Made by a program: the position numbers and the translations under genes. 57,451 bases of DNA. It comes from a virus (taxonomy: Duplodnaviria; Caudoviricetes). The number at the start of each line of letters is the position of its first letter. Position 1 is the stretch's first letter. Under the pieces are notes generated by a model that was given only the letters and a program-made list of their open reading frames with translations, ran no database searches and was not told where the DNA came from. Shown here in pieces: positions 9,269 through 52,405 of the stretch. The stretch is taken from positions 1 through 57,451 of the IMG/VR virus record IMGVR_UViG_3300037206_000024; one strand, written 5' to 3'.

Positions 9269-9318
9269 GTGGGTGGGACGCCTCATACGTCCTGCCCACC
9301 CCCTTATGAGGAGGGACC
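9269..9318 (+). ncRNA. RBS-overlapping pseudoknot element, copy A
   Basis: Stem GTGGGTGGGACG/CGTCCTGCCCAC; loop CCTCATA (9281-87) complementary to TATGAGG (9305-11) at the RBS. Confidence 0.7.
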
Positions 9319-9846
9319 ATGACAGAGCTAGAAGCAAGGCAAGAAGAAATGCGATTACGCAACTCTGTCTGTACTAAGACAGCAGTGAGAGTAATCTCGA
9401 TTATAGACAGAGTTCTTGCGGTAAGAGAGCAACGAACTGCTCAGCGAATAAAAGAATATGAAGATACTTTGGCGCTGAGACCTAAGCAATTATTTAGAAA
9501 TGGAAAAGTTGTGCCTGAAGTTGTAGAACTTTCAAAGAAACAAAGAATTAAAGTGGAGCGCACAGCAGATTATCCTGTACCACGTGATTTGAAACGAAAT
9601 GGTTGGACCCCTGAACTGTTCTACTCAGCCATTAAAAAGCAGAATGGCGAATGTGCTATATGTAATAGGAAACTTACATTTGAGAATGGAACGAGCGGCT
9701 CTAGAGCATGTACAGACCATCAGCACACTGTCCCACCGAATCCCAGAGGGATTCTCTGTTCTCCTTGCAACTCCGCCATTGGTCTTCTGAAAGATTCCCC
9801 AGAGTTGTGCGAAGCAGCCGCAGAATACCTTCGCAAGAGTTTATAA
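9319..9846 (+). CDS. Endonuclease VII-family homing endonuclease
   Basis: CAIC...DHQH...PRGILCSPCNSAIGLLKD...AAEYL. Confidence 0.82.
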   Translation: MTELEARQEEMRLRNSVCTKTAVRVISIIDRVLAVREQRTAQRIKEYEDTLALRPKQLFRNGKVVPEVVELSKKQRIKVERTADYPVPRDLKRNGWTPELFYSAIKKQNGECAICNRKLTFENGTSGSRACTDHQHTVPPNPRGILCSPCNSAIGLLKDSPELCEAAAEYLRKSL

Positions 9847-10028
9847 GTTTGGGCGTAGCAGCAGTAATGTTGTAGGCATCGCAACAAGGTGCCTGCCCAG
9901 CGTATTTGTTCCTTCGCAGCGTTGTCGCGCAAAGCCAGCCTCAGGAACGACGTGAGGAGACCCCACGATACAAAAGGGTCTCACATTTTAGTTACAGGAT
10001 TTTTTGTCAGGTAGTATTGGAGGCAGAC

Positions 10029-10226
10029 ATGGTAGTCCTACTTGTTCTTTTTACCAGCACAGTTTTCCTCAGTATCGACTCATTCAGAAACTGGAACAAG
10101 AATCGCATTCGCGTACCGCGTGGCACGATGTATACGACTCCCGGCTTCGAAGCGCTTGGTTGTTTGGCACAGGATGGACCACTTCCTGAAAAGAAAAAGA
10201 GTCATAAACAAAATCCCAAGGCTTAG
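10029..10226 (+). CDS. Small hypothetical protein with hydrophobic N-terminus
   Basis: GGAGG RBS before ATG 10029. Confidence 0.5.
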   Translation: MVVLLVLFTSTVFLSIDSFRNWNKNRIRVPRGTMYTTPGFEALGCLAQDGPLPEKKKSHKQNPKA

Positions 10227-10251
10227 TGGCCTTTGATCTAGAGGTGGTTCA

Positions 10252-10569
10252 GTGGAAAACCCTATCACACCTTTGACACCTGAGCAAACAGCCAAGGAAG
10301 AATCTCAGGCAGCTAAAGAGAGATACCTGCACAGGACACTGGTTGGCTTGGATCAATTTGTAAATGTGCTGGCTGGTGGGCATCCCGACGAAACGATCTC
10401 CGCGCGGGCGGCTAGGGCAGCTGAACAGAACAAGATGTGGGGAAAAGGAATGTCTTCCTTTCTCAACTTGTTTCAGAAAGACCATGGGCCAGACGCACAA
10501 GCAGGAGATTTAGAGCGCGCCACAGCCGTTGCCAAGATTGAAGATCAGTCAGGTGGCATTGACAAGTAA
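10252..10569 (+). CDS. Conserved phage hypothetical protein
   Basis: LDQFVNVLAGGHPDETISAR motif typical of a small phage protein family; GAGGTGG RBS. Confidence 0.7.
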   Translation: MENPITPLTPEQTAKEESQAAKERYLHRTLVGLDQFVNVLAGGHPDETISARAARAAEQNKMWGKGMSSFLNLFQKDHGPDAQAGDLERATAVAKIEDQSGGIDK

Positions 10570-10574
10570 AGTTT

Positions 10575-10651
10575 CAGAGAGTGGTGTAGTCTGGTAGCAT
10601 CCGTGGTCTGGAACCATGTGGCCGCAGGTTCAAATCCTGCCTCTCTGACCA
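10575..10651 (+). tRNA. tRNA-Pro(UGG)
   Basis: Cloverleaf: CAGAGAG/CTCTCTG acceptor, C1-G72, A73, anticodon loop TCTGGAA, TTCAAAT T-loop, encoded CCA. Confidence 0.9.
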
Positions 10652-10654
10652 TGT

Positions 10655-10730
10655 TGCGGGGTAGTAGCGCAGGACAATACGCGAGCCTCATAAGCTCGAA
10701 ACGCGAGTGCAAATCTCGCCGCCGCAACCA
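10655..10730 (+). tRNA. tRNA with CAU anticodon (Met/Ile2-type, atypical)
   Basis: CGAGC-CTCATAA-GCTCG anticodon arm; T arm GCGAG-TGCAAAT-CTCGC; encoded CCA; G6.G67 mismatch. Confidence 0.75.
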
Positions 10731-10994
10731 AATCCTAAAAGTTCTACGGCCATCAGACGCTTAGCGGGTGGTGAGGGGTCGCCTCGGTAGCGACTCCGTA
10801 GCCGTTGAAGAAGACTCACCCTGTGTCACCCTGTGTGACCTGTGCTGGTGAGACTGCGGGATGCGATACCCGCTTAGCGGCGTAGCCATACGCCTTGTGC
10901 GCACAGAATGCTGGTTTGCTACCAGCGAAATGGCATAGAGGTCTTTGGTAGATTCTTTCCTCGCATGCAAATGAATCTCCAGCTTTTAGAAAAT

Positions 10995-11068
10995 GGGCTG
11001 TTCGTCTAATGTGAGGACTTTTCCCTTGCACGGAAACAACGGGAGTTAGACCCTCCCACGGTCCACCA
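10995..11068 (+). tRNA. tRNA-Ala(UGC), atypical T-loop
   Basis: GGGCTGT/ACGGTCC acceptor with G3.U70; TTTCC-CTTGCAC-GGAAA anticodon arm; encoded CCA. Confidence 0.82.
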
Positions 11069-11198: not shown

Positions 11199-11219
11199 CG
11201 TGCCCGTCTGGAGAAGTCC

Positions 11220-11969: not shown

Positions 11970-12566
11970 ATGGCCGACTCAGAAAAGTTAGTAGACATCA
12001 CAAAACCCGGTGTGTTCAAAGACACACCGGGCGCTTCAGAAGGTATCATCATACGTAGGGATGTTCCGGTAAAAGTAGCTAGGGGTGAGGGCGGTAAGTT
12101 TGTCAAGCAAGCAAAATCCATGCCCAAGACCCAAGATGTCACTAGGCTTCTAAGGAATTTGCTTAATCAGGCCGAGGCAGGACCTGATGGAGTGCTGCGC
12201 AGAGGGGGTAAGACTCGCCTGCGAGCGATGTTCGACAACATCGTGACCATTGCAAGCAAAGACCCTAATATACCGCTCTTTGATAAAGAGGGTAACCCCG
12301 TATTGAATGCAGATGGCACGCAGCGCACGTACTTCAGCGACAAGATTGCGGGTGTGGCAGTACAGGCATTCGATAAACTTGCCTTGCGCGTATACGGTGC
12401 GTATAACAAGAGCGATGAAGAATTGGATGCAATGAAGTCCCAAGGCGTCAAGTTTGTGGTGATTGCACCACCAGACATGATGAACCGTGAAGTTATAGAA
12501 GATAAGCCCAAGGAAGCTTTGAAGCCCGCGTTTTTAGAGGGGGAGTTCGTAGAAGACAAGAGTTAG
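11970..12566 (+). CDS. Probable terminase small subunit
   Basis: Position upstream of terL (separated only by an endonuclease gene), size, GGKFVK motif; function inferred from synteny. Confidence 0.45.
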   Translation: MADSEKLVDITKPGVFKDTPGASEGIIIRRDVPVKVARGEGGKFVKQAKSMPKTQDVTRLLRNLLNQAEAGPDGVLRRGGKTRLRAMFDNIVTIASKDPNIPLFDKEGNPVLNADGTQRTYFSDKIAGVAVQAFDKLALRVYGAYNKSDEELDAMKSQGVKFVVIAPPDMMNREVIEDKPKEALKPAFLEGEFVEDKS

Positions 12567-12571: not shown

Positions 12572-12652
12572 CCCTGAGCCTTGATCAGCTCGGGCTAGAG
12601 CCGAGGAGTGCCCTCAAGCCTCCTTGGTTCGACCTACTTGAGGAGATAAATA
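12572..12652 (+). ncRNA. Hairpin + RBS-overlapping pseudoknot element, copy B
   Basis: P1 CCCTGAGC/GCTCGGG; P2 GAGCCGAGGAG/CTCCTTGGTTC; loop CCTCAAG (12612-18) pairs CTTGAGG (12637-43). Confidence 0.75.
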
Positions 12653-13075
12653 ATGCCGTACGCAGATCCAGATGTAAGTAGAGAGTATCACACTCGGAAA
12701 TCAGCAGAGTGGGCTAAGAATCACCCAGAGAAGAGGGAAAGAATACGCAAGAAGCACTGTCAAACACTAAAGCACAAAATATCAAAAAGAAAGTGTGTGC
12801 TAAAGAGCAAGGGCTGGACCCCAGAGTCCTACGCTGCAGCCCTTGTAACGCAAGAGTACCGATGTGCTGTATGTCTTGTACTGTTTGATTTGAGATTAAA
12901 GCAAGGAAAGGGAGCAGCGTGTGCCGACCACGACCATCACACGAATAAATCCAGAGGAATTCTGTGCTCAAATTGTAACCTTCTCTTAGGCCATGCGATG
13001 GACAGCGAGGAGATACTACTTAAGGCAGCTGCCTATCTCAGAAAGCATAAAGATGCCTCGAAAAAAGATCGTTGA
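12653..13075 (+). CDS. Endonuclease VII-family homing endonuclease
   Basis: CAVC...DHDH...RGILCSNCNLLLG...AAAYL; overlaps the terL start. Confidence 0.82.
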   Translation: MPYADPDVSREYHTRKSAEWAKNHPEKRERIRKKHCQTLKHKISKRKCVLKSKGWTPESYAAALVTQEYRCAVCLVLFDLRLKQGKGAACADHDHHTNKSRGILCSNCNLLLGHAMDSEEILLKAAAYLRKHKDASKKDR

Positions 13076-14969
13076 AGAAAAAGCTCGCCCGCCATATCTA
13101 AACGCGGACGGCACTCTGGAGATATCAAAGATATTTGAGTTTCAGCCTAAGCAGACAGAGCTGCTTCAAGTGCGCACCAGAGATGGAGTGCCTTATATAA
13201 TGCCGATAGCCCCCCAATGCCTAAGCGTTGGAGGTTTTCGCTCAGGAAAGACAGTGGGAGTTCTGATGTACTTTGTCATGAACTACTGCTTGGCATTTGA
13301 GAACTGTGACATCCTAATCCTTAGAAGGACATTCAAAGAGTTGGAGTCCGGCTGCATAAAGGACGCTCTTACGTTCATACCTCCAGAGATTTACAACTAC
13401 GACCAAACGAAACATTGCTTGACATTCAAAAATGGCTCACGTATAGTTTTTGGCCATTGTCAGAACAATAAAATGCGGGATTAAAAAGTCAGTCCCCTCA
13501 CTCAGAGATGAGTGTTGAAGAATCGAGAGAATTCAGGGAAACACTCGAAAGAGTCAATCCTGAGCCGAGCGCATAAAAATCATGCGAAGGTGCAACGATC
13601 ATCCCGTCGCTGGGAGTAGGGAACAGTGTTCCCGAAGCACTCGACATCTGAAAAGATGATGATATGATCTGGACTTGCTGGTGACAGCAAGAGTTTGGAT
13701 GGAAACGATCCAAGCATAACATAATCGATTGAACAATATCTCGGTCAAGCGTACTGTGCCATTCTCATTGATGAGTGTGGACAGTTCTCACCTGATGCAT
13801 GGATGATGCTATACGCACGTAATATAGTCAACGCGGCTTGTAAACCCAATGTGCATGGGCACTTTCCAATCCCGTGTGTCTGGGGCTGCACTAACCCGCT
13901 CGGTCCTTACTACGAATTTTACCGTACGGTATTCGTGCAGAAGGAACCCTTTGATAAACCCGAGAATGCGAAGCGAGACAGCAACGGCGCATGGTGGGTT
14001 GACTCCAATGGGGAATGGCTCAACATCTACGACCCCTCGTTGTACGCCTACCAGCGTTCGACAGCCATGGATAACCCTAAGTTTCTCGCAAGAGATCCCG
14101 GGTTTCTAGCGCGCATGAACAGTATGCCCAAAGCCAAGAGAGATAAAATGCTGCTTGGATTGGATGGGGCTGTTGAGGGACAGTACTTTTCAAACTTCGA
14201 CCCTTATGAACATGTGATTGATCTTCGTGAAGACCCCGAAGCTATCATTTGGCAATCTTATCAGCCAGTGTGGGGGGCGCAAGACTGGGGAGTTGGGCAC
14301 TATAACGCGGCTTATTTATTCACCAAAGCATTGGTTAGAACCATTGGTAATGAGTACAAAACGAAGACCGTATGCTTCGCAGAAACCGTGCTTCAAGGTG
14401 GAAAAACGCACAAAGAATGGGCAGCGATATTCAAACGCATGTGTAAACTGCCCAACGGTGAACCAGCAATTCCAAAATCGATATTCTTTTCTCACGAAAA
14501 GTTTTCTAAGCAGGTCACTGGGCACACACCGGCTGATGAATACTCAGTAGAACTTAGAGCTTTAGGGCTTCCTCCGGTAACCCGTGCAGCAGCGGCAGCA
14601 GGTGATCGTGTGGGATCTGCATCAATGGTTTACAACATGTTGTCCAACGGAGAACTGGTCATACTTGACACCTGCAGGGATATCATCAACACGTTTCCTA
14701 CATTGATGCGTGATCCAGATATGATGGACGACGTACTCAAAGTCAACACTCGTGGAGACGATGCGTGGGACGCCTTTCGCTATGGGATTTACGGAATGTA
14801 TAAGTCACGCAGAAAACCAGAGATAATCACAATTGAAGAACATGCCAAAAATTTGGACCCTCTTGCAGGTTGGTTTTACAGGCAAAAGATGCTAGCCAGT
14901 CGCAAGAATGAAAATACACCCTTTGTTCAGGCCGAGCAACCCGTTTGGCTAGGAAAAGGTGTATACTAA
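13053..14969 (+). CDS. terL: Terminase large subunit, spliced (exons 13053-13481 and 13728-14969; 556 aa)
   Basis: Walker A GGFRSGKT in exon 1; splicing gives ...NNKMRD|IEQYLGQAYCAILIDE (Walker B); TNP coupling motif, QDWG and DDAWDAFRY nuclease motifs. Confidence 0.9.
13482..13727 (+). mobile_element. Group I intron (246 nt, no ORF) in terL
   Basis: P1 GGGAU/GUCCC with U.G at the 5' splice site; core GAAUUCAGGGAA...AAUCCUGAGCCGAG...GCAACGAUC...GAUAUGAUCUG; terminal G 13727 restores frame. Confidence 0.9.
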
Positions 14970-22059: not shown

Positions 22060-22155
22060 GAGCTTAACCTCAGGGCATAACCTCTGGGGAAAGGGGTCTG
22101 GGGGTGCCTAGGGGAAACCCTGAAATCCCTAAGGTTAATCCTAGGAGAAAATCAA

Positions 22156-25590: not shown

Positions 25591-25648
25591 AGAGTAGGGA
25601 GATCTGCTGTCACAGGTCTCCCGCTCTACCTTGACAGAGGAGAACAAA
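25591..25648 (+). ncRNA. RBS-overlapping pseudoknot element, copy C
   Basis: P2 GAGTAGGGAGATCTG/CAGGTCTCCCGCTC; loop CTGTCA (25607-12) pairs TGACAG (25632-37) adjoining GAGGAG. Confidence 0.72.
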
Positions 25649-26212
25649 ATGAGAGTAGAAGGAAACCCAAAACCACAATATGCGAATGTGCCTGCGGAAG
25701 ATAAGCAGGCGGCATACAGCAAAGCGTATTACGAGAAGAACAAAGAAGCGCGGCGAGAAGACTCTAAGGCACGTTCTGCTGTATTCAGAGCAGAAAACAA
25801 GGAAGAAGCCAAACGTCGTGCCAGTGCTCACTGGCACTCTAAGTCTCCCGAAGAGAAAGAAAGATTGGGAGCAGAACGTAGACTCAAAGGAAGATTTAAG
25901 AGGAGCACAGAATGGTACAATGAAACCCTAAAATTACAGGGTGGGCATTGTGCGCTCTGTATCGTTGTACCAACTGATAGACGACTGCATGTTGACCATG
26001 ACCACGCGTGCTGCCCTTGCATTGATACTCGGTACACGTGTGGCAAATGTGTCAGAGGATTACTCTGTGACGGATGTAACACACGCATAGGCTATCTGGA
26101 GGGTCTCCTTAAAGAAGCGGATCCGTTCGTACCCAAAGAAGGTACGTGGACATCCCTAGCATTGCAATACTTGACTCAGTACGACACCGAGAGGTGTGGA
26201 GGGACACGATGA
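25649..26212 (+). CDS. Endonuclease VII-family homing endonuclease
   Basis: CALC...LHVDHDH..CP...CGKCVRGLLCDGCN; basic helical N-terminus. Confidence 0.85.
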   Translation: MRVEGNPKPQYANVPAEDKQAAYSKAYYEKNKEARREDSKARSAVFRAENKEEAKRRASAHWHSKSPEEKERLGAERRLKGRFKRSTEWYNETLKLQGGHCALCIVVPTDRRLHVDHDHACCPCIDTRYTCGKCVRGLLCDGCNTRIGYLEGLLKEADPFVPKEGTWTSLALQYLTQYDTERCGGTR

Positions 26213-37166: not shown

Positions 37167-38112
37167 AGGTCTTGTAGGCTCTGCACTAGTGCGAGAACTG
37201 TGCCGCCTAGGGTATACCAACCTTATCTTCAGGAATCACTCAGAACTTGACCTTACAGATTCAGAGACCACCCAATTCTTCTTTGAAAAGATGAGACCCG
37301 AGTACGTATTCTTGGCTGCGGCTAAGGTTGGTGGCATCATGGCCAATAGTACGTACCCAGCGGATTTCTTGTATCAGAACCTACAGATACAGACCAACGT
37401 TATTGAGGCGTCCCGTAGGACAGACGTTCACCGACTTCTCTTCTTGGGTTCCAGCTGTATATACCCCAAGCATGCAGAGCAACCCATTGTGGAGTCTGCG
37501 CTTCTGTCAGGGCCTCTAGAGCCTACCAACCGGGCGTACGCCGTTGCGAAGATTGCGGGCATAGAGATGTGCAGAGCATATAATCAGCAGCACGAGACCC
37601 AATATCTCGCAGCCATGCCAACAAACCTCTATGGCGCAGGTGACAATTACGACCCTCAGAACTCTCACGTCATCCCGGCCATTATCAGAAAGCTGCACGA
37701 GGCCAAAATCAAGGGGCAGAAGACCTCAGTAATCTGGGGCACAGGCACCCCGCTTAGGGAATTCCTCTATAGTGACGACTTGGCTAATGCATGTGTGTTT
37801 TTAATGGGTCTAGAGCAGAGGCAGTTCAGGAACCTCTTAGAAGACGAGGTTAATGGTCCTGTGATCAACATTGGCTCAGGGGAAGAACTTTCGATCTTAG
37901 AAATTACTAAGTGTGTTGCTGAATCGGTGGGATTCACGGGAGAGTTTGTATTGGACCCCAGCAAGCCGGATGGAACGCCACGAAAGCTCATAGACAGTTC
38001 TAGGCTGCTCAGTTTAGGGTGGAAACCTAGGGTTTCCCTGCGAGAGGGACTAGAGAACGCGTACCAAGATTTTTTAAAGCAGGAATCCCAAGGGGTTGCT
38101 CCCTTGGTCTAG
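37129..38112 (+). CDS. fcl: GDP-L-fucose synthase
   Basis: [60 protein letters not shown]. Confidence 0.95.
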
Positions 38113-38169
38113 AGTCGGGCGGTGCCTATTTCACCGCCCAGCTCGCATCTAAATAGGAGGGAAATCAAC
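38088..38169 (+). ncRNA. Hairpin + RBS-overlapping pseudoknot element, copy D
   Basis: P1 CCAAGGG/CCCTTGG; P2 GAGTCGGGCGGTG/CACCGCCCAGCTC; loop CCTATTT (38125-31) pairs AAATAGG (38151-57). Confidence 0.78.
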
Positions 38170-38730
38170 ATGTTTTACACGTACCAATGGTTACGAGAAG
38201 ATGGCTCACCATACTATGTGGGAAAAGGCAAAGGAAGCAGAGCTTATCACAACGGGATAGGTCATCGTGCCCCTAAAGACCGGAGTAGGATAGTAGTACA
38301 AAAATGGTCGGATGAAGCCACCGCTTTTGCCTTTGAAGTTTATCTCATAGACTTCTGGGGAAGGAAAGACATTGGAACCGGAATTCTTCACAATCGTACA
38401 GATGGTGGAGAAGGAGACAGCGGTAGAGAATTTTCCAAAGAGCACAGAAAGAAACTTAGTGTCGCGGCTACAGGAAGAGGAAGATCCGAAGTCACTAGAA
38501 AGAAAATAAGGGAAGCTAGAGCTAAGCAGGTGATAACTGAGGAAACTGGTAAAAAGATAAGCGAACACCATATGGGACATGAAGTGTCTGAAAAGAGTAT
38601 AAGGGTGTTCCGTAATATGCTGCACACTAGATGGCATGTCAATAGGGCCATAGTAAAGGAAAATTGTGAAATATGCCAAGAGTTCTTATTGCCATCTCCA
38701 GCTGTGAAACATTTGAACGCAGTGGCTTAA
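38170..38730 (+). CDS. GIY-YIG-like homing endonuclease with NUMOD3-type repeats
   Basis: FYTY...PYYVGKG...R...E..LI...G...L.N.TDGGEG followed by SKEHRKKLS / SEVTRKKI repeats. Confidence 0.8.
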   Translation: MFYTYQWLREDGSPYYVGKGKGSRAYHNGIGHRAPKDRSRIVVQKWSDEATAFAFEVYLIDFWGRKDIGTGILHNRTDGGEGDSGREFSKEHRKKLSVAATGRGRSEVTRKKIREARAKQVITEETGKKISEHHMGHEVSEKSIRVFRNMLHTRWHVNRAIVKENCEICQEFLLPSPAVKHLNAVA

Positions 38731-39982: not shown

Positions 39983-39995
39983 GGATAGGCTCAGC

Positions 39996-42986: not shown

Positions 42987-43834
42987 GTGGCAAGGGGTTT
43001 GTCCTAGGGGAATACGTAAGTCAGTTTTACCATCACGCTATAGGCAACCTAGCTAGTGTGAATGAGAGAAATGACTATGAGATTTATAGTCCAGACGTAC
43101 TTATGGGCATCAGTACAATCCACAATTTTCACATCTTCACTGAACCTACCCTAGACATCGAGACCAACTTGGTCGTGCTCGTCAAGGTGCTGGAGCACTG
43201 GAGAAAGTATCAAGAAAGAACGGGGAAGCATGGAGTTTTCAACTTCATTTCTAGCTGGCTAGTATACGGAACCAAAGATAGACTGCCAGTACCGGAGACT
43301 GCTCCGTGTAACCCATCGGGATTCTACTCTATCACCAAGAGATGTGCAGAGCAACTGTTGATAAGTTATTGCACCACCTACAACCTCAAGTGGCGCATTC
43401 TTCGCCTTTCCAACGTAGTCGGAACCAATGACAAAAAGGTTTCTGCCCAGAAGAACGGTCTGCAGCACATGATCAACAAGATGGCCAACGGGGAAGATGT
43501 AGAGATCTACGGTGATGGAAATTTTCACCGTGACTTTTGCCATGTATCCGATGTGGCTGCGGCCATAGAGTTGGTGCTGTGCAAGGGCAGTGTGAATGAA
43601 ATCTACAATGTGGGCAACGGTAAGACATGGACCTTCAAGGACATCATCCTGTATGCTAGGGAAAAGCTGAAGACCGCAGGTGCTGTACGATTCGTGGAAC
43701 CTAAGGCGTTCCAGAAGCAAGTTGTTGTACAGACATTTTACCTAGACAATTCTAAGCTACGTGCGTTGGGATACGCGCCGAAGTACTCAGGAGAGAAGCT
43801 GTACGATTCTATTATACCAAATTCCAAGGCTTAG
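42962..43834 (+). CDS. NAD-dependent nucleotide-sugar epimerase/reductase
   Basis: ILGGKGFV, SSWLVYG, YSITK, LRLSNVVG, RDFCHVSD; GTG start after AGGAG. Confidence 0.85.
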   Translation: MDSELTILGGKGFVLGEYVSQFYHHAIGNLASVNERNDYEIYSPDVLMGISTIHNFHIFTEPTLDIETNLVVLVKVLEHWRKYQERTGKHGVFNFISSWLVYGTKDRLPVPETAPCNPSGFYSITKRCAEQLLISYCTTYNLKWRILRLSNVVGTNDKKVSAQKNGLQHMINKMANGEDVEIYGDGNFHRDFCHVSDVAAAIELVLCKGSVNEIYNVGNGKTWTFKDIILYAREKLKTAGAVRFVEPKAFQKQVVVQTFYLDNSKLRALGYAPKYSGEKLYDSIIPNSKA

Positions 43835-43901
43835 CGGCCTTGGCGCAGAGTAGGGAGGTGCCTAGTTCACCTCCCGGCTCGCATTCTAACTAGGAGAAAA
43901 T
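43824..43901 (+). ncRNA. Hairpin + RBS-overlapping pseudoknot element, copy E
   Basis: P1 CCAAGGC-TTAGCG-GCCTTGG; P2 GAGTAGGGAGGTG/CACCTCCCGGCTC; loop CCTAGTT (43861-67) pairs AACTAGG (43888-94). Confidence 0.8.
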
Positions 43902-44387
43902 ATGCCAAAAGGCACAAACCAATATACAGGAAAAATTCGTACACACTGTAAAAACGGACACGAGTTTACACTTGAAAACACTTACACACGTCCCGATGGG
44001 TTTAAGGTGTGTAAGACCTGTCGAAGAGAACAACAATTGAAATTCGCAGCTGAGCATAAAGATGAGCACAGAGAACAATCTCGGGTGTATTCAAAGAGAA
44101 ACCCAGAGAAAAGAAGATTTTCTTGGAGACAATACCTAAGAAAAAGAGCAGGGTTTTCTCAAGAGCTATTTCATGTAAGACTGGAAGAGCAGAGGGGTAA
44201 GTGTGATATTTGTAAAGAAATTTTTACAGAGGAAAACGTGCCGCATGCCGACCATAAACACGTTGAGCCACCCATGCCCAGAGGCTTGTTATGCAACACA
44301 TGTAACTCAGCCATCGGACTGCTTAAGGATAGACCACAAAATTGTGAAGAAGCGGCAGTGTACCTAAGAAAATATGGGGAAATATGA
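43902..44387 (+). CDS. Endonuclease VII-family homing endonuclease with N-terminal Zn-finger-like module
   Basis: THCKNGHEF...CKTC; CDIC...DHKH..PPMPRGLLCNTCNSAIG...AAVYL. Confidence 0.85.
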   Translation: MPKGTNQYTGKIRTHCKNGHEFTLENTYTRPDGFKVCKTCRREQQLKFAAEHKDEHREQSRVYSKRNPEKRRFSWRQYLRKRAGFSQELFHVRLEEQRGKCDICKEIFTEENVPHADHKHVEPPMPRGLLCNTCNSAIGLLKDRPQNCEEAAVYLRKYGEI

Positions 44388-45973: not shown

Positions 45974-46015
45974 CGACAGCGTATACGCCTTAGAGCGTGG
46001 AAAAGAGAAAACAGC

Positions 46016-46408: not shown

Positions 46409-46417
46409 GGAGAAACC

Positions 46418-46684: not shown

Positions 46685-46692
46685 GATGAGTA

Positions 46693-46744
46693 CCCATTCT
46701 TACGATGGGAAGGGCCGTGGAAATCGGCCCACACATTTAAGGAG
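46693..46744 (+). ncRNA. Two-hairpin repeated motif, copy 2
   Basis: CCCAT/ATGGG-AA-GGGCCG/CGGCCC-ACACA-TTTAAGGAG. Confidence 0.55.
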
Positions 46745-46749
46745 ACATC

Positions 46750-47154: not shown

Positions 47155-47157
47155 GAT

Positions 47158-47230
47158 CTCAAGGCTTAGCGGCCTTGGGCTAGCGCGGGAGGTGCTTCTA
47201 TCATCTCCCTGCGCGACCTATAGAAGAGGA
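47158..47230 (+). ncRNA. Hairpin + pseudoknot element, copy F (no nuclease downstream)
   Basis: P1 CAAGGC-TTAGCG-GCCTTG; P2 GCGCGGGAGGTG/CATCTCCCTGCGC; loop CTTCTAT (47195-201) pairs ATAGAAG (47220-26). Confidence 0.78.
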
Positions 47231-47249
47231 GAGCATATAAGGAGAACCC

Positions 47250-50200
47250 ATGGGACACAATCTGAAAGCGCTCGGCAGCGCGAGCTTGGATGCTTTTGGT
47301 GGACTTATTACATTTGCAGATGCCCGAGATGTCCCCGAGGGTGCGAGCCCTCGTAACTGGGATGTAGATTATTCCGTAGGCTCCGTATTCACGCGCCCCG
47401 GCCTGCAGTCTCAGTACAGTTTTGCCACCACTCTGACGATCACGGGGTTCTCCTTAGGGTCGGGCAGTATCGCAACCTTTACCTACGTTGGAAGTGAACC
47501 AACGGTAAACGAAGGGTTCTTGCTGAACGGCTTCACGGGCACTCTTACTCCCCTCAATGGGCAGACGGTGTATGTAGAATCCGTCACCATGACCCAGTTT
47601 ACAGCCTTAGTAACCGGGGTTCCGTTCGTTACTATCGGCGGACTAAATGCCACAGCTGTGTCTACAACGGGTCTTTTTGTTGGCCCCAATGTGGGGTCGT
47701 CTTTCAATGGTCCAGCATGGACTAACCCAAGCGGTATCAGCAGCGCTACCTCATACGCTTCGGTGGCCACTGGGCTTCCAGTTGAGGAGAGTACCTCGGG
47801 AACTACTGGGGTTAACCAAGGTTCTGGTCAGCCATGGCTTGTTGTAAATCAAGTGTGGGGCACAGGCTCTTTTGTAGAAAACCTGTCTGCAAACCAAACC
47901 TCAGCCACACTGTTTGCATCAGGCACAACATTGAGTATACCTGCCGATGCAACTGTGGTAGGGGTATCCTTGAGTTTTAATTGGGGAAACCTTTCAAATC
48001 CTCCAAATGGTACAGTTGCACAATTGTCTGCGCAGTTAGCTATTAACGGTCTACCTGTAGGGGTCACTTTGCGCTCTACTTCTGGAACCTACGGAGCGAC
48101 TGCTCTAGGCTCCTCGTCCTTCTTGTGGGGAACTACATTTTCCACAGAAAATCTAAACAACGGAGGGCTTGGCGTTCTTTTTTCGGTGACCAGAGGCACT
48201 TCGGGCTCATCCAACGCAGCGTTTGGTGTGGCAGACCTAGTAATCGGAGTCTATTACACTCAAAACCTACCTTCGGGTGCGCTGCTTGATCAGAACTTTT
48301 TGTTTGCCATAGCCCCTGCTAACGGGATCTCTGGTTTGGGTGCTAGTTTCAAAGCCTATTCTTCTCCCTTTGTGTCTGGGGCACCGACTTCTGCCAGTCT
48401 ACAACTACTGCAGAACGGTGTCCCTGTCGGCACAGCGAAGACTGTGGTCCTCACTTCTACACCAGAGGTATATAGCCTAGGGTCTCCTAGCGACAGTTGG
48501 GGTGGGTCTTGGACGGCGAGCACAATAAACAACTCCACTTTTGGAGTAGAGATCATAGCTTCTGGTGCAGGGGTTACGTATGTAGGCGATTTGGATGTCA
48601 CTGCTTACATTACGCCCGCCCTAGTCAACTTTAACTGGTTCGGAAGCTATCAACAGAACAACAACTCTCTGTTCACCTTAGCACTTGACGCAGCGGGCAA
48701 TGTGTGGCAAGAAAATGTTCTGGAGAACCCCGGGGTTCTTTCCCTGTCTCTGACAGGGGTTATTCCCGGTTCCTACGGGAATGGGGCCACAATTGACAAC
48801 TCTGAGTTCGTCATGTTCTCAGATTTGAATGTCGGCACTGACCGTCCACGGCAATTGTCCGCTGATGGAGTCTGGTACCCAGTCTCTCAGTGTGCTCCCG
48901 GTGCCCCTCCATCCTTCATAGCCAGCACAGCCGCAATCAGTGGCGTCTTGACCCTGCAGAGCTACACATGGACGGCATCAGCCACTGTACCCAATGAGGG
49001 CGTAGCCAACTTCACGTTTACCAGCCCTTCAGGCTCAGTACCTGTCGTAGGATCAATTTATGTGATCAACGGGACAGGTACAACCTTAGATCATCAAGCG
49101 GTCATTGTATTGGGTTCTCCTGCCCCAACCTCAACCACGTTCTCCGCAGAGGTGACAGGCACGGCTTCTCCAAACTACCCAGCGGGACCGACCATTATCG
49201 TTGGTACCATGGCTGCGCAGTTCTTCTACAGTGTTGTGTCGATCACGCAATTTCCGGCGTATGCTGGATTGCAAGAACCTGTGCCGCTAGAATTAAGCGC
49301 AGGAGCGACGGCGATCCAAGCTGGCAACGTAGTCACCTTTTACTATCAGGACACTACCACCGGAGGACCTGACCAAAATCTTCTCACCGCATTTTCCTCA
49401 GGCAATGGAGCATGGGTTTACATCACAGGGGCACCCACAGCTATACCCTGCAATGGAAACTGGCAAGTCATTGCTATGGGAAAATCGATCCCACCGGGAG
49501 CGTCAGACGAGCATTGGTATTTTTCCTTCTTGTTCAACACTACTGGAGCTGTGAACGGTTCTAGTTTTTCCGGGGTCACGTACCGGCAGACGGCAGCTAC
49601 CATTACCTTCCCTCTTCCCGGCATTCTAGGTTTATACGCCGGTTCTCAGATGACAATCACCAATGTCACTGGGGTACCGCAAGATGGTTGGAACAACTCG
49701 TGGACTGTCATAGAGGCTGTAAACTCGGGGCAGTACATCATTACCTCAACTTCTTCCACAGCGGGTGTGGCTACCTACGGGTACCAGTTCTCATCCACAA
49801 CCAACAGTCAGGTTCCTATAGCGGGGCACCTTATCACCATTACGGGGGCTCTGCAAGCCCCGGGATACAACGGCACCTTCCTTATTGCCACCGTGAACGT
49901 GGGAAACAACACCTTCACAGTGAACTACCAAAATCTGCCGGATACAGTCGGCGGGCCGGTCAATGAGAGTGCGACTGCGCAGGCCGCTATGGCAGGTACG
50001 GTGTTTACGTTCGACCCCGGACAATTGTTTGTGGGTACTAACCAGAACACCATCTATGGCAACGTATCAGGTATGGGGGATGTCACCATTATCGGTACCA
50101 CACTGACACCTATCGGTGCTGGTACACGACAAGCGGTGGTGTTCTTCATCACAGCGAGTGGTAACTGGACCCCAGTGTCTAATCCCACTCTTCCCTTTAC

Positions 50201-52286
50201 TACGCCAGCCGATGCGAACGTACTGCAAGTCTCCAACATTCCTATAGGCCCATCCGACGTAATCGCACGCGGAATTGCGATTACGGAAGCAGGTGCCAAT
50301 GGTGTGCCGGGAGCAAACTTCTACGTTATCACCAACCCAGTGACGCAGACTGTTAACGGCGTCACGTCCACGTACACATCTACAATTATCAACGACAACA
50401 CGAGCACGACAGCGCAGTTCAGCTTTACGGATGATGTGCTGTTGAACTCTACTGAAATTGATATCCCGGGGCGCGACCTGTTCAACACAATTGAACTCGG
50501 CAGCTGCGCTTGGTGTGTGCCGTACTCCAGCCGAATGTTCTACGGCCTGCAGTTGAACAAAGTGACCAACCTCATCAACACCACGTTTGATGGGGGCTAC
50601 CAAATAGTCAACCAAGTCGGACAGAATTTATATCAACAACCATCCGGCTGGGGATTGTACCCAGTTGCTAACGAAGCGAGGCTTTTGCCCAGTCCTGTTA
50701 CTGGTGACGCCTACTACATCGTCAATAACACAGGTGTGGTTGGCAGCACCAACCCGGGTTTGGGAGCAATTGCACAGACAGCCTATCAGGACTTCTTCAA
50801 CGTCCCGATCATCGCTATCAACACAGCGTACTCGGTGCGTGTGGCGTGTTCGGCTCCTTCAGGCATCGGCATTGGAACCTTGGTCATAGACCTAGTGCAG
50901 CTAAGCAAGGGAAGTTTTGGCAAGGTATACGGTAGCTTCAGTGTACCGCTGTCCACCATGGGCGTAACAATGTCAGTGTTCAGTGGGACTCTCTTGACCA
51001 GTGTATTCACGTCCGTCGTTGACCCACAATTGAGTTTGCGGGTGCGTGTAACGGGCATGGGTATTGGGGCAGATGTGCTGATCGACCGCTTTGAGGTCTT
51101 CCCCACACTCTTCCCGTACCTGAAGACTGAGGTATATGGGTCTTACATCAATCAGCCTGAGGAGATAGACGCCTCAGGTGATGGTGGGATCATAGATACG
51201 AGTACGGAGAACCCGCAGGCATGCTTCGGTGGTTTCGTCCTGCGTGATCAGCTGTATCTGCTCAAAACGAGCAGCATGTACAGCACGCGCGACAACCCTA
51301 ACTCTGAACCCGGTGGCTGGTCATTGAATGAGGTCAGCAATCGCGTAGGCATCTGCGGTATCAATGCCTACGACGTGGGTGAAGAATGGGCTGTGCTGGC
51401 ATGTCGCAATGGCATCTATGGCTTCGAGGGCACTGAACCTGAGCTGATCAATCTGGAAACACTTCAGATCTGGCAGCAAATCAACTTCAATGCAGGCAAC
51501 ACCATTGTGCTCAGGAACGACACAGAAAATCGAAGGATTCTCTGCGCCGTCCCTCTTCCAACTGGGTATTCCCCAGAGGGCGTGGCAACAGGCACGGTGA
51601 CATGGTTGCCCTTTGCTCCGTACAACCCTGCACCGACCACACCCAACGTGATCTTGGTATTGAATTACCAAGCCCTTGGGGACTTCAAGGAGTTGATGGC
51701 TTCAATCGGAACGCACGCCACTATGTTCGGCAGCTTGGCGAACCCAGACATGCGTAGGAAGTGGACGATCTGGCAGATACCTACTCCGTACATGGGGCTT
51801 GTGACCAGAGCTAATTTGCTCGACATGCCATTGTATTTTGGCAACGGGATCGACTCCTCCAAAATCTATCAGCTCAACGACGATCAGCTGAGTGATGATG
51901 GAGTAGCCATCAATGGCCTCTACACCACGTATGGACACGTCAATGCTGTCAAGGCAGCTACCTTGCCGATCTTCGGCATGCACACGAAGCGCTACACCGT
52001 CCTGCAAGCGAACCTTGCGGGCGCAGGTAATTGCCAAGTGCGCCTGATACCGAATGACCTGTTCGCAAGGTATCCCTACGTAGTACCCGGGGGGATCACT
52101 TTGAACAGCCCTGAGAATGACGATATGTTCCGCCCAGTTAACTGTAAAGGGCAAAGGCTATTCTTGGAGTTCTCCACGAACGCTGTGGGAGCATGGTTCC
52201 AGCTCGACAAGACGCTGTTGACGGGCAAGGCTGATGGCTGGTCATCGCTCAACCCAACGGGTGGGGGAAACCTCGGCATCACGTAG
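47250..52286 (+). CDS. Large tail protein (probable nozzle/tail-tube protein with inserted beta domains), 1678 aa
   Basis: FGGL...N.D...G....RPG N-terminus and propeller-like C-terminal half typical of podovirus nozzle proteins; position before ejection proteins; inferred. Confidence 0.55.
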   Translation: MGHNLKALGSASLDAFGGLITFADARDVPEGASPRNWDVDYSVGSVFTRPGLQSQYSFATTLTITGFSLGSGSIATFTYVGSEPTVNEGFLLNGFTGTLTPLNGQTVYVESVTMTQFTALVTGVPFVTIGGLNATAVSTTGLFVGPNVGSSFNGPAWTNPSGISSATSYASVATGLPVEESTSGTTGVNQGSGQPWLVVNQVWGTGSFVENLSANQTSATLFASGTTLSIPADATVVGVSLSFNWGNLSNPPNGTVAQLSAQLAINGLPVGVTLRSTSGTYGATALGSSSFLWGTTFSTENLNNGGLGVLFSVTRGTSGSSNAAFGVADLVIGVYYTQNLPSGALLDQNFLFAIAPANGISGLGASFKAYSSPFVSGAPTSASLQLLQNGVPVGTAKTVVLTSTPEVYSLGSPSDSWGGSWTASTINNSTFGVEIIASGAGVTYVGDLDVTAYITPALVNFNWFGSYQQNNNSLFTLALDAAGNVWQENVLENPGVLSLSLTGVIPGSYGNGATIDNSEFVMFSDLNVGTDRPRQLSADGVWYPVSQCAPGAPPSFIASTAAISGVLTLQSYTWTASATVPNEGVANFTFTSPSGSVPVVGSIYVINGTGTTLDHQAVIVLGSPAPTSTTFSAEVTGTASPNYPAGPTIIVGTMAAQFFYSVVSITQFPAYAGLQEPVPLELSAGATAIQAGNVVTFYYQDTTTGGPDQNLLTAFSSGNGAWVYITGAPTAIPCNGNWQVIAMGKSIPPGASDEHWYFSFLFNTTGAVNGSSFSGVTYRQTAATITFPLPGILGLYAGSQMTITNVTGVPQDGWNNSWTVIEAVNSGQYIITSTSSTAGVATYGYQFSSTTNSQVPIAGHLITITGALQAPGYNGTFLIATVNVGNNTFTVNYQNLPDTVGGPVNESATAQAAMAGTVFTFDPGQLFVGTNQNTIYGNVSGMGDVTIIGTTLTPIGAGTRQAVVFFITASGNWTPVSNPTLPFTTPADANVLQVSNIPIGPSDVIARGIAITEAGANGVPGANFYVITNPVTQTVNGVTSTYTSTIINDNTSTTAQFSFTDDVLLNSTEIDIPGRDLFNTIELGSCAWCVPYSSRMFYGLQLNKVTNLINTTFDGGYQIVNQVGQNLYQQPSGWGLYPVANEARLLPSPVTGDAYYIVNNTGVVGSTNPGLGAIAQTAYQDFFNVPIIAINTAYSVRVACSAPSGIGIGTLVIDLVQLSKGSFGKVYGSFSVPLSTMGVTMSVFSGTLLTSVFTSVVDPQLSLRVRVTGMGIGADVLIDRFEVFPTLFPYLKTEVYGSYINQPEEIDASGDGGIIDTSTENPQACFGGFVLRDQLYLLKTSSMYSTRDNPNSEPGGWSLNEVSNRVGICGINAYDVGEEWAVLACRNGIYGFEGTEPELINLETLQIWQQINFNAGNTIVLRNDTENRRILCAVPLPTGYSPEGVATGTVTWLPFAPYNPAPTTPNVILVLNYQALGDFKELMASIGTHATMFGSLANPDMRRKWTIWQIPTPYMGLVTRANLLDMPLYFGNGIDSSKIYQLNDDQLSDDGVAINGLYTTYGHVNAVKAATLPIFGMHTKRYTVLQANLAGAGNCQVRLIPNDLFARYPYVVPGGITLNSPENDDMFRPVNCKGQRLFLEFSTNAVGAWFQLDKTLLTGKADGWSSLNPTGGGNLGIT

Positions 52287-52316
52287 TTGACAGACAGCAC
52301 CAAGTTGTGGTACAAT
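52287..52316 (+). promoter_or_regulatory. sigma70-like promoter
   Basis: TTGACA-18 bp-TACAAT with extended -10 TG. Confidence 0.7.
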
Positions 52317-52332
52317 TAGTCAGTAAGAGATA

Positions 52333-52405
52333 TCAGGGCTTAGCGGCTCTGAAGCAGAGTCGGGAGGAGCCTGATACTCCTCCCTTCTCGACCTTATCAG
52401 GAAGG
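52333..52405 (+). ncRNA. Hairpin + pseudoknot element, copy G (no nuclease downstream)
   Basis: P1 TCAGGGC-TTAGCG-GCTCTGA; P2 GAGTCGGGAGGAG/CTCCTCCCTTCTC; loop CCTGATA (52370-76) pairs TATCAGG (52395-401). Confidence 0.78.

Follow-up and report, generated by a model that had tools for sequence, protein, structure and literature searches.

A covarying RNA leader of mobile nuclease genes of several unrelated families in a clade of uncultured phages

Seven copies of a leader and the genes behind them

The window, which is the whole 57,451-nucleotide stretch of virus record IMGVR_UViG_3300037206_000024 that was analysed, carries seven copies of one structured element, all on the + strand, which is the coding strand (Table 1). 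In this clade of uncultured phages, a homologous folded RNA leader precedes mobile nuclease genes of several unrelated families. The sequence-only reading had counted five nucleases of two families behind the seven copies. The Endonuclease VII-family ORFs behind copies 1, 2, 3 and 5 bear this out, and the GIY-YIG/NUMOD3 assignment behind copy 4 holds only weakly: the NUMOD3 match (E = 0.0065) is below the Pfam cut-off, and a profile of six relatives matches a solved GIY-YIG protein at E = 0.005. We regard it as a probable GIY-YIG-like nuclease. In these five cassettes the element lies at the ribosome binding site (RBS) of the nuclease. Copy 6 precedes a 1678-aa gene (ATG 47250; a second Shine-Dalgarno, AAGGAG, lies 20 nt further downstream), and behind copy 7 no ATG, GTG or TTG start was found downstream of GAGGAGG.

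Table 1. Leader copies and associated ORFs in the window.
Feature	Position	Strand	Stems	Loop	Partner	P3	Further details
Copy 1 leader, without hairpin 1	9269..9318	+	S1 9269-9280/9288-9299, 12 bp, two G-U	9281-9287 CCTCATA	9305-9311 TATGAGG	CCCT/AGGG	linker 9300-9304; start codon 9319
Endonuclease VII-family ORF behind copy 1	9319..9846	+					175 aa; Pfam PF02945, E = 4.8e-14
Partial copy	10217..10256	+	hairpin 1 (CCAAGGCTTAGTGGCCTTTG)				model match at 10212; hairpin 1 and TCTAGAG motif only
Copy 2 leader	12573..12652	+	hairpin 1 12573-12579/12588-12594; S1 12598-12630 with bulged U	12612-12618 CCTCAAG (loop segment)	12637-12643 CTTGAGG	2 of 3 pairs only	start codon 12653
Endonuclease VII-family ORF behind copy 2	12653..13075	+					140 aa; Pfam E = 1.1e-16
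Copy 3 leader, without hairpin 1	25591..25648	+	lower 25591-25595/25623-25627; upper 25597-25606/25613-25622	25607-25612 CTGTCA	25632-25637 TGACAG	CCT/AGG	start codon 25649
Endonuclease VII-family ORF behind copy 3	25649..26212	+					187 aa; Pfam E = 5.6e-14
Copy 4 leader	38088..38169	+	hairpin 1 38088-38107; lower 38112-38115/38141-38144; upper 38117-38124/38132-38139	38125-38131 CCTATTT	38151-38157 AAATAGG	TCT/AGG (U-G)	start codon 38170
Probable GIY-YIG-like nuclease with NUMOD3 motif	38170..38730	+					186 aa; N-terminus MFYTYQWLREDG
Copy 5 leader	43824..43901	+	hairpin 1 43824-43843; lower 43848-43851/43877-43880; upper 43853-43860/43868-43875	43861-43867 CCTAGTT	43888-43894 AACTAGG	TCT/AGA	start codon 43902
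Endonuclease VII-family ORF behind copy 5	43902..44387	+					161 aa; Pfam E = 5.1e-13
Copy 6 leader, no nuclease	47158..47249	+	hairpin 1 47158-47179; S1 47183-47194/47202-47214	47195-47201 CTTCTAT	47220-47226 ATAGAAG	CCT/AGG	
Copy 7 leader, no nuclease	52333..52425	+	hairpin 1 52333-52352; lower 52357-52359/52387-52389; upper 52362-52369/52377-52384	52370-52376 CCTGATA	52395-52401 TATCAGG		followed by GAGGAGG

The leader sets in 1-8 nt past the stop codon of the upstream gene. Copy 2, for example, starts 6 nt past the stop of ORF 11970-12566, while ORF 37087-38112 stops within the CTAGAG motif of copy 4 and ORF 42872-43834 within the TTAGCG loop of hairpin 1 of copy 5. Overlap of the nuclease with the next gene, which had been claimed for four cassettes, is clear behind copies 2, 4 and 5, possible behind copy 3 and absent behind copy 1. 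The ORF behind copy 2 overlaps the likely start of the large terminase (MPRKK at 13053; terminase per PHROGs), and the stop of the ORF behind copy 5 overlaps the next start (ATGA at 44384). Promoter-like sites precede copy 1 (9219-9248, 11/12, TG extension), copy 7 (52287-52316, 11/12, TG) and, weakly, copy 3 (25556-25584, 9/12). The partial copy, which has an orthologue in a relative (L002:6780), continues directly into GAGGTGG and a GTG start. A region of the window occurs in RNA libraries, as contigs that are uninformative on RNA ends or structure.

From 5' to 3' the leader comprises an optional hairpin 1, a YUAG-R-G motif, the hairpin S1, a spacer of 0-3 nt, a helix P3 that encloses the partner loop, and the start codon. 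S1 is a hairpin of 10-13 bp, in many copies interrupted by a small internal loop; its own loop has 6-7 nt. P3 is a helix of 3-4 bp between the linker CCU and the Shine-Dalgarno AGG, and because of this pairing the loop partner is itself a hairpin loop. Each of its 6-7 nt has its Watson-Crick counterpart in the S1 loop, and this pairing is termed helix S2. The stem, the loop and the complementary segment at the Shine-Dalgarno had been recognized before; P3 had been overlooked. For 28 of 37 copies, and for five of the seven window copies, nested folding predicts S1 together with a small hairpin that covers the Shine-Dalgarno.

A blind scan of the window (stem of at least 8 bp, loop of 5-9 nt, downstream complement of at least 6 nt) gave eight matches on the + strand, which represent six of the seven copies and nothing else, and one on the - strand, which mirrors copy 7. 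Shuffled versions of the sequence (n = 20) yielded 0-3 matches (mean 0.85). Copy 2 was missed because a bulge adjoins its loop. A covariance model built from copies 4-7 finds copies 2, 1 and 3 (E = 2e-4, 0.016 and 0.022) and the partial copy. Covariance models of the window copies, whose use on phage metagenomes the sequence-only reading had suggested, returned the element from related uncultured phage contigs as well.

Covariation, position and the link to nucleases

The seven loop/partner pairs of the window all differ and are nevertheless complementary at the positions first given, and the support for this pattern is stronger than first reported. With relatives and metagenome copies included, 56 distinct intact sequences carry 39 different loops, each with 6-7 Watson-Crick pairs to its own partner, and the whole loop is paired in 55 of the 56. 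In all 38 distinct intact copies assessed, at least 6 nt within the 32 nt downstream pair perfectly with the copy's own loop, whereas mismatched combinations of loop and downstream sequence are complementary in only 24 of 1388 cases. Copy 1 and its orthologues (L002:5821, CCTCTAA/TTAGAGG; L013:3023) differ by compensatory change. In an alignment fitted to the model, hairpin 1 and S1 are 94.4% paired, with 18 of 19 pairs changed on both sides; none of 500 shuffles reaches this level of covariation, and slid controls are 34-51% paired. P3 forms all three pairs in 50 of 56 copies, a number that drops to 19, 3 and 0 for slides of 1, 2 and 3 positions. Among its coupled variants are TCT/AGA (5 copies), TCC/GGA and GCCT/AGGC; one relative (L071) has the loop of copy 4 with P3 as TCT/AGA. 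Covariation thus shows S2 and the three helices hairpin 1, S1 and P3.

The position of the element is fixed. Each of the 78 model matches is on the coding strand, and 51 of 53 copies have 5-12 nt, most often 8, between the end of S2 and the start codon. The proposed enrichment upstream of nucleases extends to other genomes: of 33 nuclease-like ORFs that could be assessed, 32 lie behind the element, the exception (window 877-1236) having its own promoter and a short leader. Conversely, 32 of 48 downstream ORFs have a Pfam nuclease catalytic domain, and the families represented are Endonuclease VII, GIY-YIG, HNH and T5orf172.

Among about 370 pairs of S2 none is G-U; in S1 such pairs make up about 6%. 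A strictly Watson-Crick S2 would also suit action at the DNA level, where the inverted repeats, being interleaved, could form a cruciform or act as a site of recombination or a target of the nuclease, and Endonuclease VII relatives do cut branched DNA. We give this reading almost no credence, since the many G-U pairs in S1 and hairpin 1 would be C-A on the other strand, all copies stand in the coding direction at a fixed distance from the start codon, and GIY-YIG and HNH genes use the same leader.

Mobility, cargo exchange and relic leaders

The idea of an RNA plus nuclease unit with swappable cargo, inserted between genes of a conserved operon, is borne out by comparison of the same sites in relatives, where whole cassettes are present, absent, swapped or decayed. 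At the copy 2 site, the window has an Endonuclease VII cassette where L002 has a GIY-YIG one, although the two sequences are 97% identical upstream of it. In the place of copy 1, L013 has a T5orf172/MUG113 ORF behind a near-identical leader, and at the copy 7 site L003, L004 and L042 have the leader and a GIY-YIG gene. The anticipated empty sites were also found: a site past an 899-aa gene is empty, full or decayed, depending on the relative. At the copy 6 junction, the element is absent in the distant relatives L042 and L043. One loop code was found with different nuclease families.

Loss of the nuclease is accompanied by decay of the leader. Of 36 nuclease-linked copies, 35 have a perfect S2, vs four of eight relics (our own classification; Fisher p = 0.002). 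Fixed position, link to nucleases, mobility, cargo exchange and decay after nuclease loss are all observed. Copies 6 and 7, which have a perfect S2 and no nuclease behind it, are probably relic leaders rather than working cassettes; copy 6 may also be a solo leader. In L062 too, a leader persists without a nuclease.

No Rfam family matches the element, either in the window at E up to 5 or in 114 kb of relatives at the gathering score, consistent with the first impression that it is not a named RNA family. This bears on a role as self-cleaving ribozyme or nuclease partner RNA, which we consider very improbable. There is a general likeness to pistol ribozymes, in which a hairpin loop is fully paired to a downstream strand, and, like them, other small ribozymes and phage-associated motifs, the leader is small with a loop paired downstream; it also has conserved unpaired bases (YUAG, CGA). 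However, none of these families gave a match in those searches, and leaders persist in copies 6 and 7 and in L062 without a nuclease. The partner role proposed earlier is unlikely, given that the leader serves at least four nuclease families with no relation to each other.

Parts of the element also occur alone. Hairpin 1 stands by itself before non-nuclease genes (window 10212; L031:1693), and at L036:2881 S1 occurs solo, with a terminator-like hairpin and a T-run behind it. These cases, and the onset directly past the upstream stop codon, would fit an RNA processing or stability element whose hairpins act as a cleavage site or exonuclease block. The upstream mRNA would be protected at its 3' end, or the nuclease mRNA at its 5' end, and the cassette would be uncoupled from the operon transcript; T7 and SP82 have repeated intergenic RNase III sites. 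We hold this to be improbable, as it leaves unaccounted for the match of the loop to the sequence adjoining the Shine-Dalgarno and the constant spacing of about 8 nt from the start codon. S1 is moreover too short for a classical RNase III site, and the RNA-library contigs give no ends.

A predicted role in translational control

RBS-sequestering hairpins control T4 I-TevI, I-TevII, I-TevIII and segB and Aeh1 mobE (PMC2988022). As in the leader, these are local RBS structures on mobile nuclease genes within longer phage transcripts, with the presumed purpose of restraining or timing nuclease synthesis (PMC2988022). In the T4 cases, however, each gene has a stem-loop of its own, unrelated to the others, in which the entire RBS is buried, and a late promoter within the structure provides a bypass. 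In contrast, the leader is one homologous family before at least four nuclease families, splits the Shine-Dalgarno between a 3-4 bp helix and a loop-loop helix, and shows no promoter-like site within the structure.

With moderate confidence, we favour a portable cis-acting 5' leader that sets the translation of free-standing homing-endonuclease cassettes in this phage clade. Control of the amount of nuclease is the most likely predicted function, and we infer action at the level of translation with net repression. On long operon transcripts, the leader would set the initiation rate of the nuclease by keeping the Shine-Dalgarno in local structure. RBS occlusion as first proposed survives in part: the first one or two G's would lie in S2 and AGG in P3, and cover is not complete. 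The stable hairpins would also shield the nuclease start from ribosomes ending a highly expressed upstream gene and from neighbouring sequence at a new insertion site, and the outcome would be low nuclease synthesis, independent of context. The leader may alternate between a nested form (S1 and P3) and a knotted form (upper S1 and S2), or its loops may pair between molecules.

The geometry of the leader is restrictive. The linker has 0-6 nt, and at L023:13162 a 16-bp stem is joined to a 3-nt linker that is the P3 strand alone. By an estimate from A-form geometry, which is not a model, the linker is not long enough to let a single molecule form both S2 and the full S1 of 10-13 bp; we therefore expect either a switch of conformation or intermolecular pairing, and the compact H-type pseudoknot first envisaged is incompatible with the full stem. 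In crude energy estimates the nested form comes out ahead of the knotted one, with a median gap of 6 kcal/mol (range -2.4 to +15.3) and a gap of 10-15 kcal/mol for most copies with an uninterrupted stem.

Several observations sit uneasily with translational repression. P3 is weak at 3-4 bp and covers the Shine-Dalgarno partially, formation of S2 in cis is questionable given that the crude energies favour the nested form, and simple occlusion does not account for an S2 free of G-U pairs. Copies 6 and 7 have a perfect S2 with no nuclease behind it, and the promoter inside the structure that marks the T4 cases has no counterpart in the leader.

The direction of the effect could be opposite, since the start-site pseudoknots of timP and repZ activate translation. 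A covariation-supported pseudoknot of seven pairs between an upstream hairpin and the RBS hairpin is essential for translation of timP, whose mRNA adopts mutually exclusive conformations (PMC11228461), and a pseudoknot is essential for initiation of RepZ translation in IncI1/IncB plasmids (PMC8053102). Like the leader, timP and repZ/repA pair an upstream hairpin loop with an RBS hairpin through about seven covarying pairs in exclusive conformations (PMC11228461; PMC8053102); in those systems translation depends on the pseudoknot and an antisense RNA is directed against it, whereas the leader has no evident antisense partner or leader peptide. By this analogy, pairing of the S1 and P3 loops would be the ON state, a timer or activator: the nested form, made first during transcription, would be silent, and a slow rearrangement ('structural processing') would open P3 and free the AGG. 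P3 does pair AGG and by geometry must open for S2 to form in cis. We nevertheless think this unlikely, because S2 itself covers the first one or two G's of GGAGG, the crude energies favour the nested form, nothing points to a trigger, and a mobile nuclease is expected to need restraint and not boosting, as is generally held for the T4 endonucleases (PMC2988022).

Pairing of the loops between molecules is a further reading. The S1-P3 spacer is 0-2 nt in 26 of 37 copies, and S1 stacked on P3 would form a rod with a complementary loop at each end. Since these loops could not meet in cis, copies of the same mRNA might kiss head to tail; alternatively, S1 hairpins at the 3' ends of processed upstream mRNAs might kiss the start-site hairpin. 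The start site would then be buried in a long stacked helix, possibly cut by RNase III, and nuclease synthesis would fall as transcript concentration rises. The case at L023:13162, the Watson-Crick pairing of all loop nucleotides and the separate code of every copy within a genome (seven different codes in the window) speak for it. Fully paired seven-nucleotide loop-loop complexes are formed by ColE1 RNA I/II, loops pair hand in hand in phi29 pRNA and bicoid mRNA, and RNase III cuts Staphylococcus RNAIII in its loop-loop complexes. In the ColE1 and phi29 complexes, as in the leader, two 6-7 nt loops are fully complementary with no spare nucleotides, and the two loops of one pRNA are likewise unable to reach each other; those complexes form between molecules, whereas both leader loops lie 0-3 nt apart on one mRNA. 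The probability of this reading is low: the steric argument is a geometric estimate, the solo S1 with its terminator at L036:2881 has no matching partner on its short contigs, and a polymerising mRNA has no known precedent as a control of nuclease genes.

For the preferred translational leader, there are further parallels among structured or regulatory RNA or DNA modules that travel with a mobile gene as a cassette and are repeated in a phage genome. The gene 60 bypass element associated with T4 mobA recodes translation of the host gene, and the PeSL cassettes of T4-type phages combine a promoter with a terminator-like stem; unlike in the leader, no loop in these modules is known to be matched to the start site of the cargo.

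Copies and structure of the leader

Seven sites in the window carry an RNA element of ~60-95 nt, here called the leader. It comprises an optional first hairpin (hairpin 1), a main stem (S1), a helix between the S1 loop and a downstream partner (S2), and a short helix between the linker CCU and the Shine-Dalgarno AGG (P3). The sequence-only reading had listed a loop/partner pair for each site, and all seven pairs were found when the sites were read again. A blind scan of the plus strand (stem of at least 8 bp, loop of 5-9 nt, downstream complement of at least 6 nt) returned six of the seven copies and no other matches, whereas shuffled sequences average 0.85; a bulge hid copy 2 from the scan. 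A covariance model trained on copies 4-7 found copies 2, 1 and 3 as well, together with a partial copy at 10212 that consists of the first hairpin only. Its candidates at 35995, 46352, 28169 and 54662 were on inspection unrelated hairpins. A model candidate at 22066-22158 was left uncounted: the region 22058-22162 folds no better than shuffles (z = -0.58) and a second model was negative.

The exact 19-mer of hairpin 1 occurs in 8 viral contigs and 39 metagenome stretches, but 12 of these 39 stretches are without the remainder of the element, and thus the 19-mer by itself is not specific. Synteny searches added 21 loci with the 899-aa protein, 13 with the terminase and 2 with the 1678-aa protein; the 938-aa protein as query gave zero relatives. 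A second covariance model gave 78 matches in 399 kb, every one on the coding strand, and 39 further matches in metagenome loci. Once duplicates and broken copies were dropped, the set comprised 56 distinct intact sequences, among which 39 loops differ.

Several sequences were rejected or mis-read by the parser used to define intact copies (L numbers denote related uncultured-phage or metagenome loci, followed by the position of the element). L019:5823 has one A-A mismatch in 7 with a GIY-YIG gene present, while L011:7979, L011:888 and L015:2991 have lost or broken the partner and the nuclease is absent. L015:1317, L021:2585 (=L038:3477) and L053:2978 (=L056:11619) are incomplete elements, L036:2881 (=L037, L038) is a solo S1, and L008, L002:6780 (=L059, L064) and L031:1693 are hairpin 1 alone. 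L060:1 is cut at the contig end and L047 is unrelated. Copy 2, L042:11068, L079:826 and L045 (=L066) are intact by eye despite the parser, and the first three were added by hand.

In the model-fitted alignment, hairpin 1 and S1 are 94.4% paired and 18 of 19 pairs vary on both sides; none of 500 shuffles reaches this level, and slid alignments give 34-51%. The covariation proposed for loop and partner also holds across relatives: in 38 of 38 copies the copy's own downstream 32 nt contain a perfect match to the loop over 6 nt or more, as against only 1.7% of mismatched loop/downstream combinations. S2 consists of 6-7 Watson-Crick pairs in the 56 distinct sequences, with the whole loop paired in 55, although this uniform perfection is partly a selection effect, since the parser demands at least five contiguous Watson-Crick pairs. 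Three or four pair types occur at each of positions 2-7, and G-U pairs are absent from S2 as compared with about 6% in S1.

P3 joins the triplet just 5' of the partner, as a rule CCU, to the triplet just 3' of it, as a rule the Shine-Dalgarno AGG, in 50 of 56 sequences, against 19, 3 and 0 when the comparison is slid by 1, 2 and 3 bases. Coupled variants of this helix include TCT/AGA (five copies), TCC/GGA, GCCT/AGGC and CCCT/AGGG, and the small P3 hairpin is present in the predicted minimum-energy fold of 28/37 copies and of 5/7 window copies. Because the P3 pairs flank the partner, the partner is itself a hairpin loop, and the leader is made of two adjacent hairpins with complementary loops, as in a kissing-loop pair. 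In most copies the 5' strand of S1 carries Shine-Dalgarno-like purines, often facing a strand that resembles the 3' end of 16S rRNA (e.g., 43853-43860 GGGAGGTG / 43868-43875 CACCTCCC). This resemblance is not universal across copies and may reflect only common descent.

No family in Rfam 15 matches the element, whether the window is searched at the gathering threshold or with E allowed to rise to 5, in line with the first impression that it is not a named RNA; elsewhere in the window, Rfam matches are limited to group I introns, tRNAs and chance-level hits. At gathering score, 12 related loci (113,987 bases) gave one group I intron and nothing at the elements. Full-text searches of open-access papers and bioRxiv returned no description of it. 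The element is a candidate new Rfam RNA family.

Loop pairing and the length of the linker

The element had been described as a pseudoknot. The pairing of a hairpin loop with a strand 3' of the hairpin stands, whereas the presence of both stems at once probably does not, since the linker appears too short. S1 is 10-13 bp long in 34 of 37 copies, 0-6 nt remain before the partner, and in 26 of the 37 no more than 0-2 nt separate S1 from P3. In L023:13162, an uninterrupted 16-bp stem is followed by the three P3 bases alone before the partner begins. By our own estimate from A-form geometry, ~8 nt are needed to span an 11-bp stem, so the full S1 and S2 should not coexist within one molecule. We infer that both an H-type pseudoknot and a cis kissing pair would be excluded for a single molecule. 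Either the leader would act as a two-state switch, in which formation of S2 opens P3 and the lower part of S1, or the loops would pair between molecules. In a crude energy comparison the nested form (S1 and P3) is favoured over the knotted form (upper S1 and S2); the median difference is 6 kcal/mol, with values from -2.4 to +15.3.

Pairing between molecules could make the leader a self-addressed RNA device, that is, a rod whose two loops complement each other but cannot pair in cis. Head-to-tail kissing would then be confined to transcripts of one and the same cassette; alternatively, the start site would be the trans target of a processed upstream hairpin. This model is in keeping with the short linker, but we consider it improbable. 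If true, it would provide a concentration-dependent shut-off private to each mobile nuclease, and the leader, not the nuclease, would be the conserved mobile module that captures any nuclease family.

Nuclease genes and proposed control of translation initiation

As proposed from the sequence, Endonuclease VII family ORFs follow copies 1, 2, 3 and 5. The ORF behind copy 4, assigned earlier to GIY-YIG/NUMOD3, encodes a probable GIY-YIG-like protein, for which support is weak. Pfam domains in the downstream ORFs of relatives are GIY-YIG, Endonuclease_7, HNH and T5orf172, and in all a catalytic nuclease-domain match (Pfam) is present in 32 of 48 ORFs tested. The window and L001-L040 contain 39 distinct nuclease-like ORFs, and 31 have a model match at their start. 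Six of the other eight lie at contig edges (two of these with a cut 3' half of the element), one carries the element beyond the 80-nt search window, and one has none, so that the leader accompanies 32 of 33 assessable nuclease-like ORFs. The exception, which stands apart among minus-strand genes, is the sole nuclease-like gene without a structured leader (Table).

Table. Coordinates of the leader copies and of other features in the window
Feature	Coordinates	Strand	Details
Leader copies 1-7 (sites)	9269, 12573, 25591, 38088, 43824, 47158, 52333
Element-free nuclease-like ORF	877-1236	+	Fifth Endonuclease VII-like; own promoter-like TTGACT...TACAAT at ~832-860; plain 20-nt leader
Group I introns without ORFs	13473-13691, 24785-25003, 23814-24053		Rfam: two above threshold (55.9, 74.9 bits), one below (33.1 bits, E = 1e-4)
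tRNA cluster	10575-11065		Rfam: three tRNA matches, one partial; ARAGORN: only tRNA-Pro(UGG) at 10575-10651

The element starts 1-8 nt past the stop codon of the upstream gene, and the end of the partner lies 5-12 nt from the start codon in 51 of 53 copies (mode 8). This stop-to-start position, the way P3 and S2 share the Shine-Dalgarno, and the strict association with operon-embedded nuclease genes point to translation initiation as the level at which the leader would act. The element-free ORF, with a promoter-like site of its own, fits this reading. A shared upstream promoter was rejected as a part of the cassette, the preceding 45 nt being the 3' coding end of the upstream gene in most copies. 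Strong promoter-like sites precede copies 1 (9219-9248) and 7 (52287-52316) only, both upstream of the whole element, and the overall number of promoter-like sites is no higher than in shuffles. A conserved short upstream ORF through S1 was also discarded; by eye it is present in copy 5 alone.

Structures that sequester the RBS are an established restraint of I-TevI, segB and mobE in T4-type phages (PMC2988022). Because such sequestration is established there, we favour a repressing and insulating role, and on balance the leader would repress and insulate translation of its nuclease. Unlike the hairpins of T4-type endonuclease genes, where the entire Shine-Dalgarno lies in a very stable stem, the element holds only the AGG in a P3 of 3-4 bp, with the first 1-2 G in an S2 of 6-7 bp. 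The T4-type hairpins also contain an internal late promoter that yields a shorter, translatable transcript, whereas a scan for sigma-70-like sites found none inside any of the seven copies.

The main rival is an activating or timing role. In timP and repZ, a pseudoknot of an upstream hairpin with the RBS hairpin is required for translation (PMC11228461, PMC8053102). These systems are comparable to the element in architecture only, and we regard activation as less likely than repression. Below it we rank, in this order, kissing in trans, a role in processing or stability, a ribozyme or partner RNA, and a role at the DNA level. Six RNA-library runs contain 0.20-0.43 of the sampled words from 43500-53400. 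Assembled contigs of four of these runs, placed on 37500-57400, give low, patchy cover and have no ends or joints at the elements; one of them (X15 record 6) spans copy 7. Inside the 889-aa gene, two RNA-library runs have contigs that lack 289 bases at 54869-55159, with loose ends nearby; strain variation is more likely than splicing.

Mobility, probable relics and genomic setting

The nucleases had been proposed to form free-standing cassettes between conserved genes, and the relatives bear this out: a given site may lack a cassette, hold one or hold a different one. Up to 12547, L002 and the window are 96-97% identical; L002 then carries another leader and a GIY-YIG gene at the site where the window has copy 2 and an Endonuclease VII gene; similarity is back, at 78%, in the terminase. 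The junction after the 899-aa gene is a bare stop, Shine-Dalgarno and start in the window and in L007, L009, L014, L019 and L027, and is also cassette-free, with a longer gap, in L012, L013 and L026. At this junction the L015 group has a leader with a GIY-YIG gene, and in L005 and L011 the leader is intact while the nuclease is a decayed remnant. Where the window has copy 7, L003, L004 and L042 carry a leader and a GIY-YIG gene, and at the position of copy 6 L042 and L043 have no element; the best reading of copies 6 and 7 is thus that these leaders survived their nuclease.

Single loops recur with different cargo. The loop ctatgaa is found with a NUMOD3-type gene (L004), Endonuclease VII (L068) and GIY-YIG (L070), cctcata with Endonuclease VII (copy 1) and T5orf172 (L013:3023), and ccatata with both GIY-YIG and HNH. 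A perfect S2 is present in 35 of 36 copies linked to a nuclease vs 4 of 8 relics (hand classification; p = 0.002), which suggests that the nuclease and the selection acting on S2 are connected.

That a homing endonuclease gene can have RNA structure at its RBS is, as a general idea, already known. What appears to be new is one homologous leader family common to at least four nuclease families, its architecture of two hairpins with complementary loops, and the fact that it behaves as a portable module. In large phages, few mobile genes are as common as those of free-standing homing endonucleases. To our knowledge, how they are kept harmless in essential operons is understood for a few T4-type cases only, in which every gene has an ad hoc hairpin to itself. 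Here, one homologous, heavily covarying leader is found on Endonuclease VII, GIY-YIG, HNH and T5orf172 cassettes across a clade of uncultured phages, which suggests that a portable expression-control module helps to make cassettes transferable between sites and nuclease families. The leader could be a ready-made, context-independent translation insulator. With its small size, more than 50 natural variants available to guide mutagenesis and the structural puzzle set by the apparent conflict between S1 and S2, it offers a tractable system in which to study RNA switches at start codons.

Parts of the element also occur separately. Hairpin 1 stands alone before non-nuclease genes at 10217-10236 in the window, at L002:6780 and at L031:1693 (the terminase start in L031), and may be a separate intergenic module. 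L036:2881-2965 (= L037, L038) is a stand-alone hairpin 1 and S1 (loop CCTCAAA) with no partner, followed by a terminator-like hairpin and a T-run, which suggests a 3' end or small RNA; no complementary trans site for it was found on L036-L038, contigs of only 6-7 kb. Behind copy 7, the gene at 52402-53094 has no ATG, GTG or TTG near its conserved N-terminus. An in-frame ACG at 52426, 7 nt past GAGGAGG, aligns with the ATG of the L042 homologue, and the next canonical start, a GTG at 52528, would cost the gene about 34 conserved residues.

The window (57,451 bases, 50% G+C) has genes for DNA polymerase and ribonucleotide reductase on its minus strand and, on the plus strand, a long operon in which a group I intron interrupts the large terminase. 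Neither the terminase exon (tblastn) nor the copy 6 leader (blastn, E up to 1) has a deposited-phage match in the phage collection searched, so the clade is without a deposited relative in that collection. Metagenome runs with peat and permafrost labels contain near-identical DNA. A single 1,455-base contig of an uncultured Terracidiphilus-labelled MAG carries sequence 87% identical to the window, which is too little to name a host.

The intron at 13473-13691 is the one that splits the terminase gene, and the other two lie within a gene at ~23330-25130. L001 is without these two, and the terminase intron of L002 resembles the window intron at 24785. Two free-standing Endonuclease VII genes lie within a few hundred bases of intron-bearing genes (12653-13075 with the terminase intron, 25649-26212 with that at 24785-25003). 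This pairing of free-standing nuclease and ORF-less intron is reminiscent of 'collaborative homing'.
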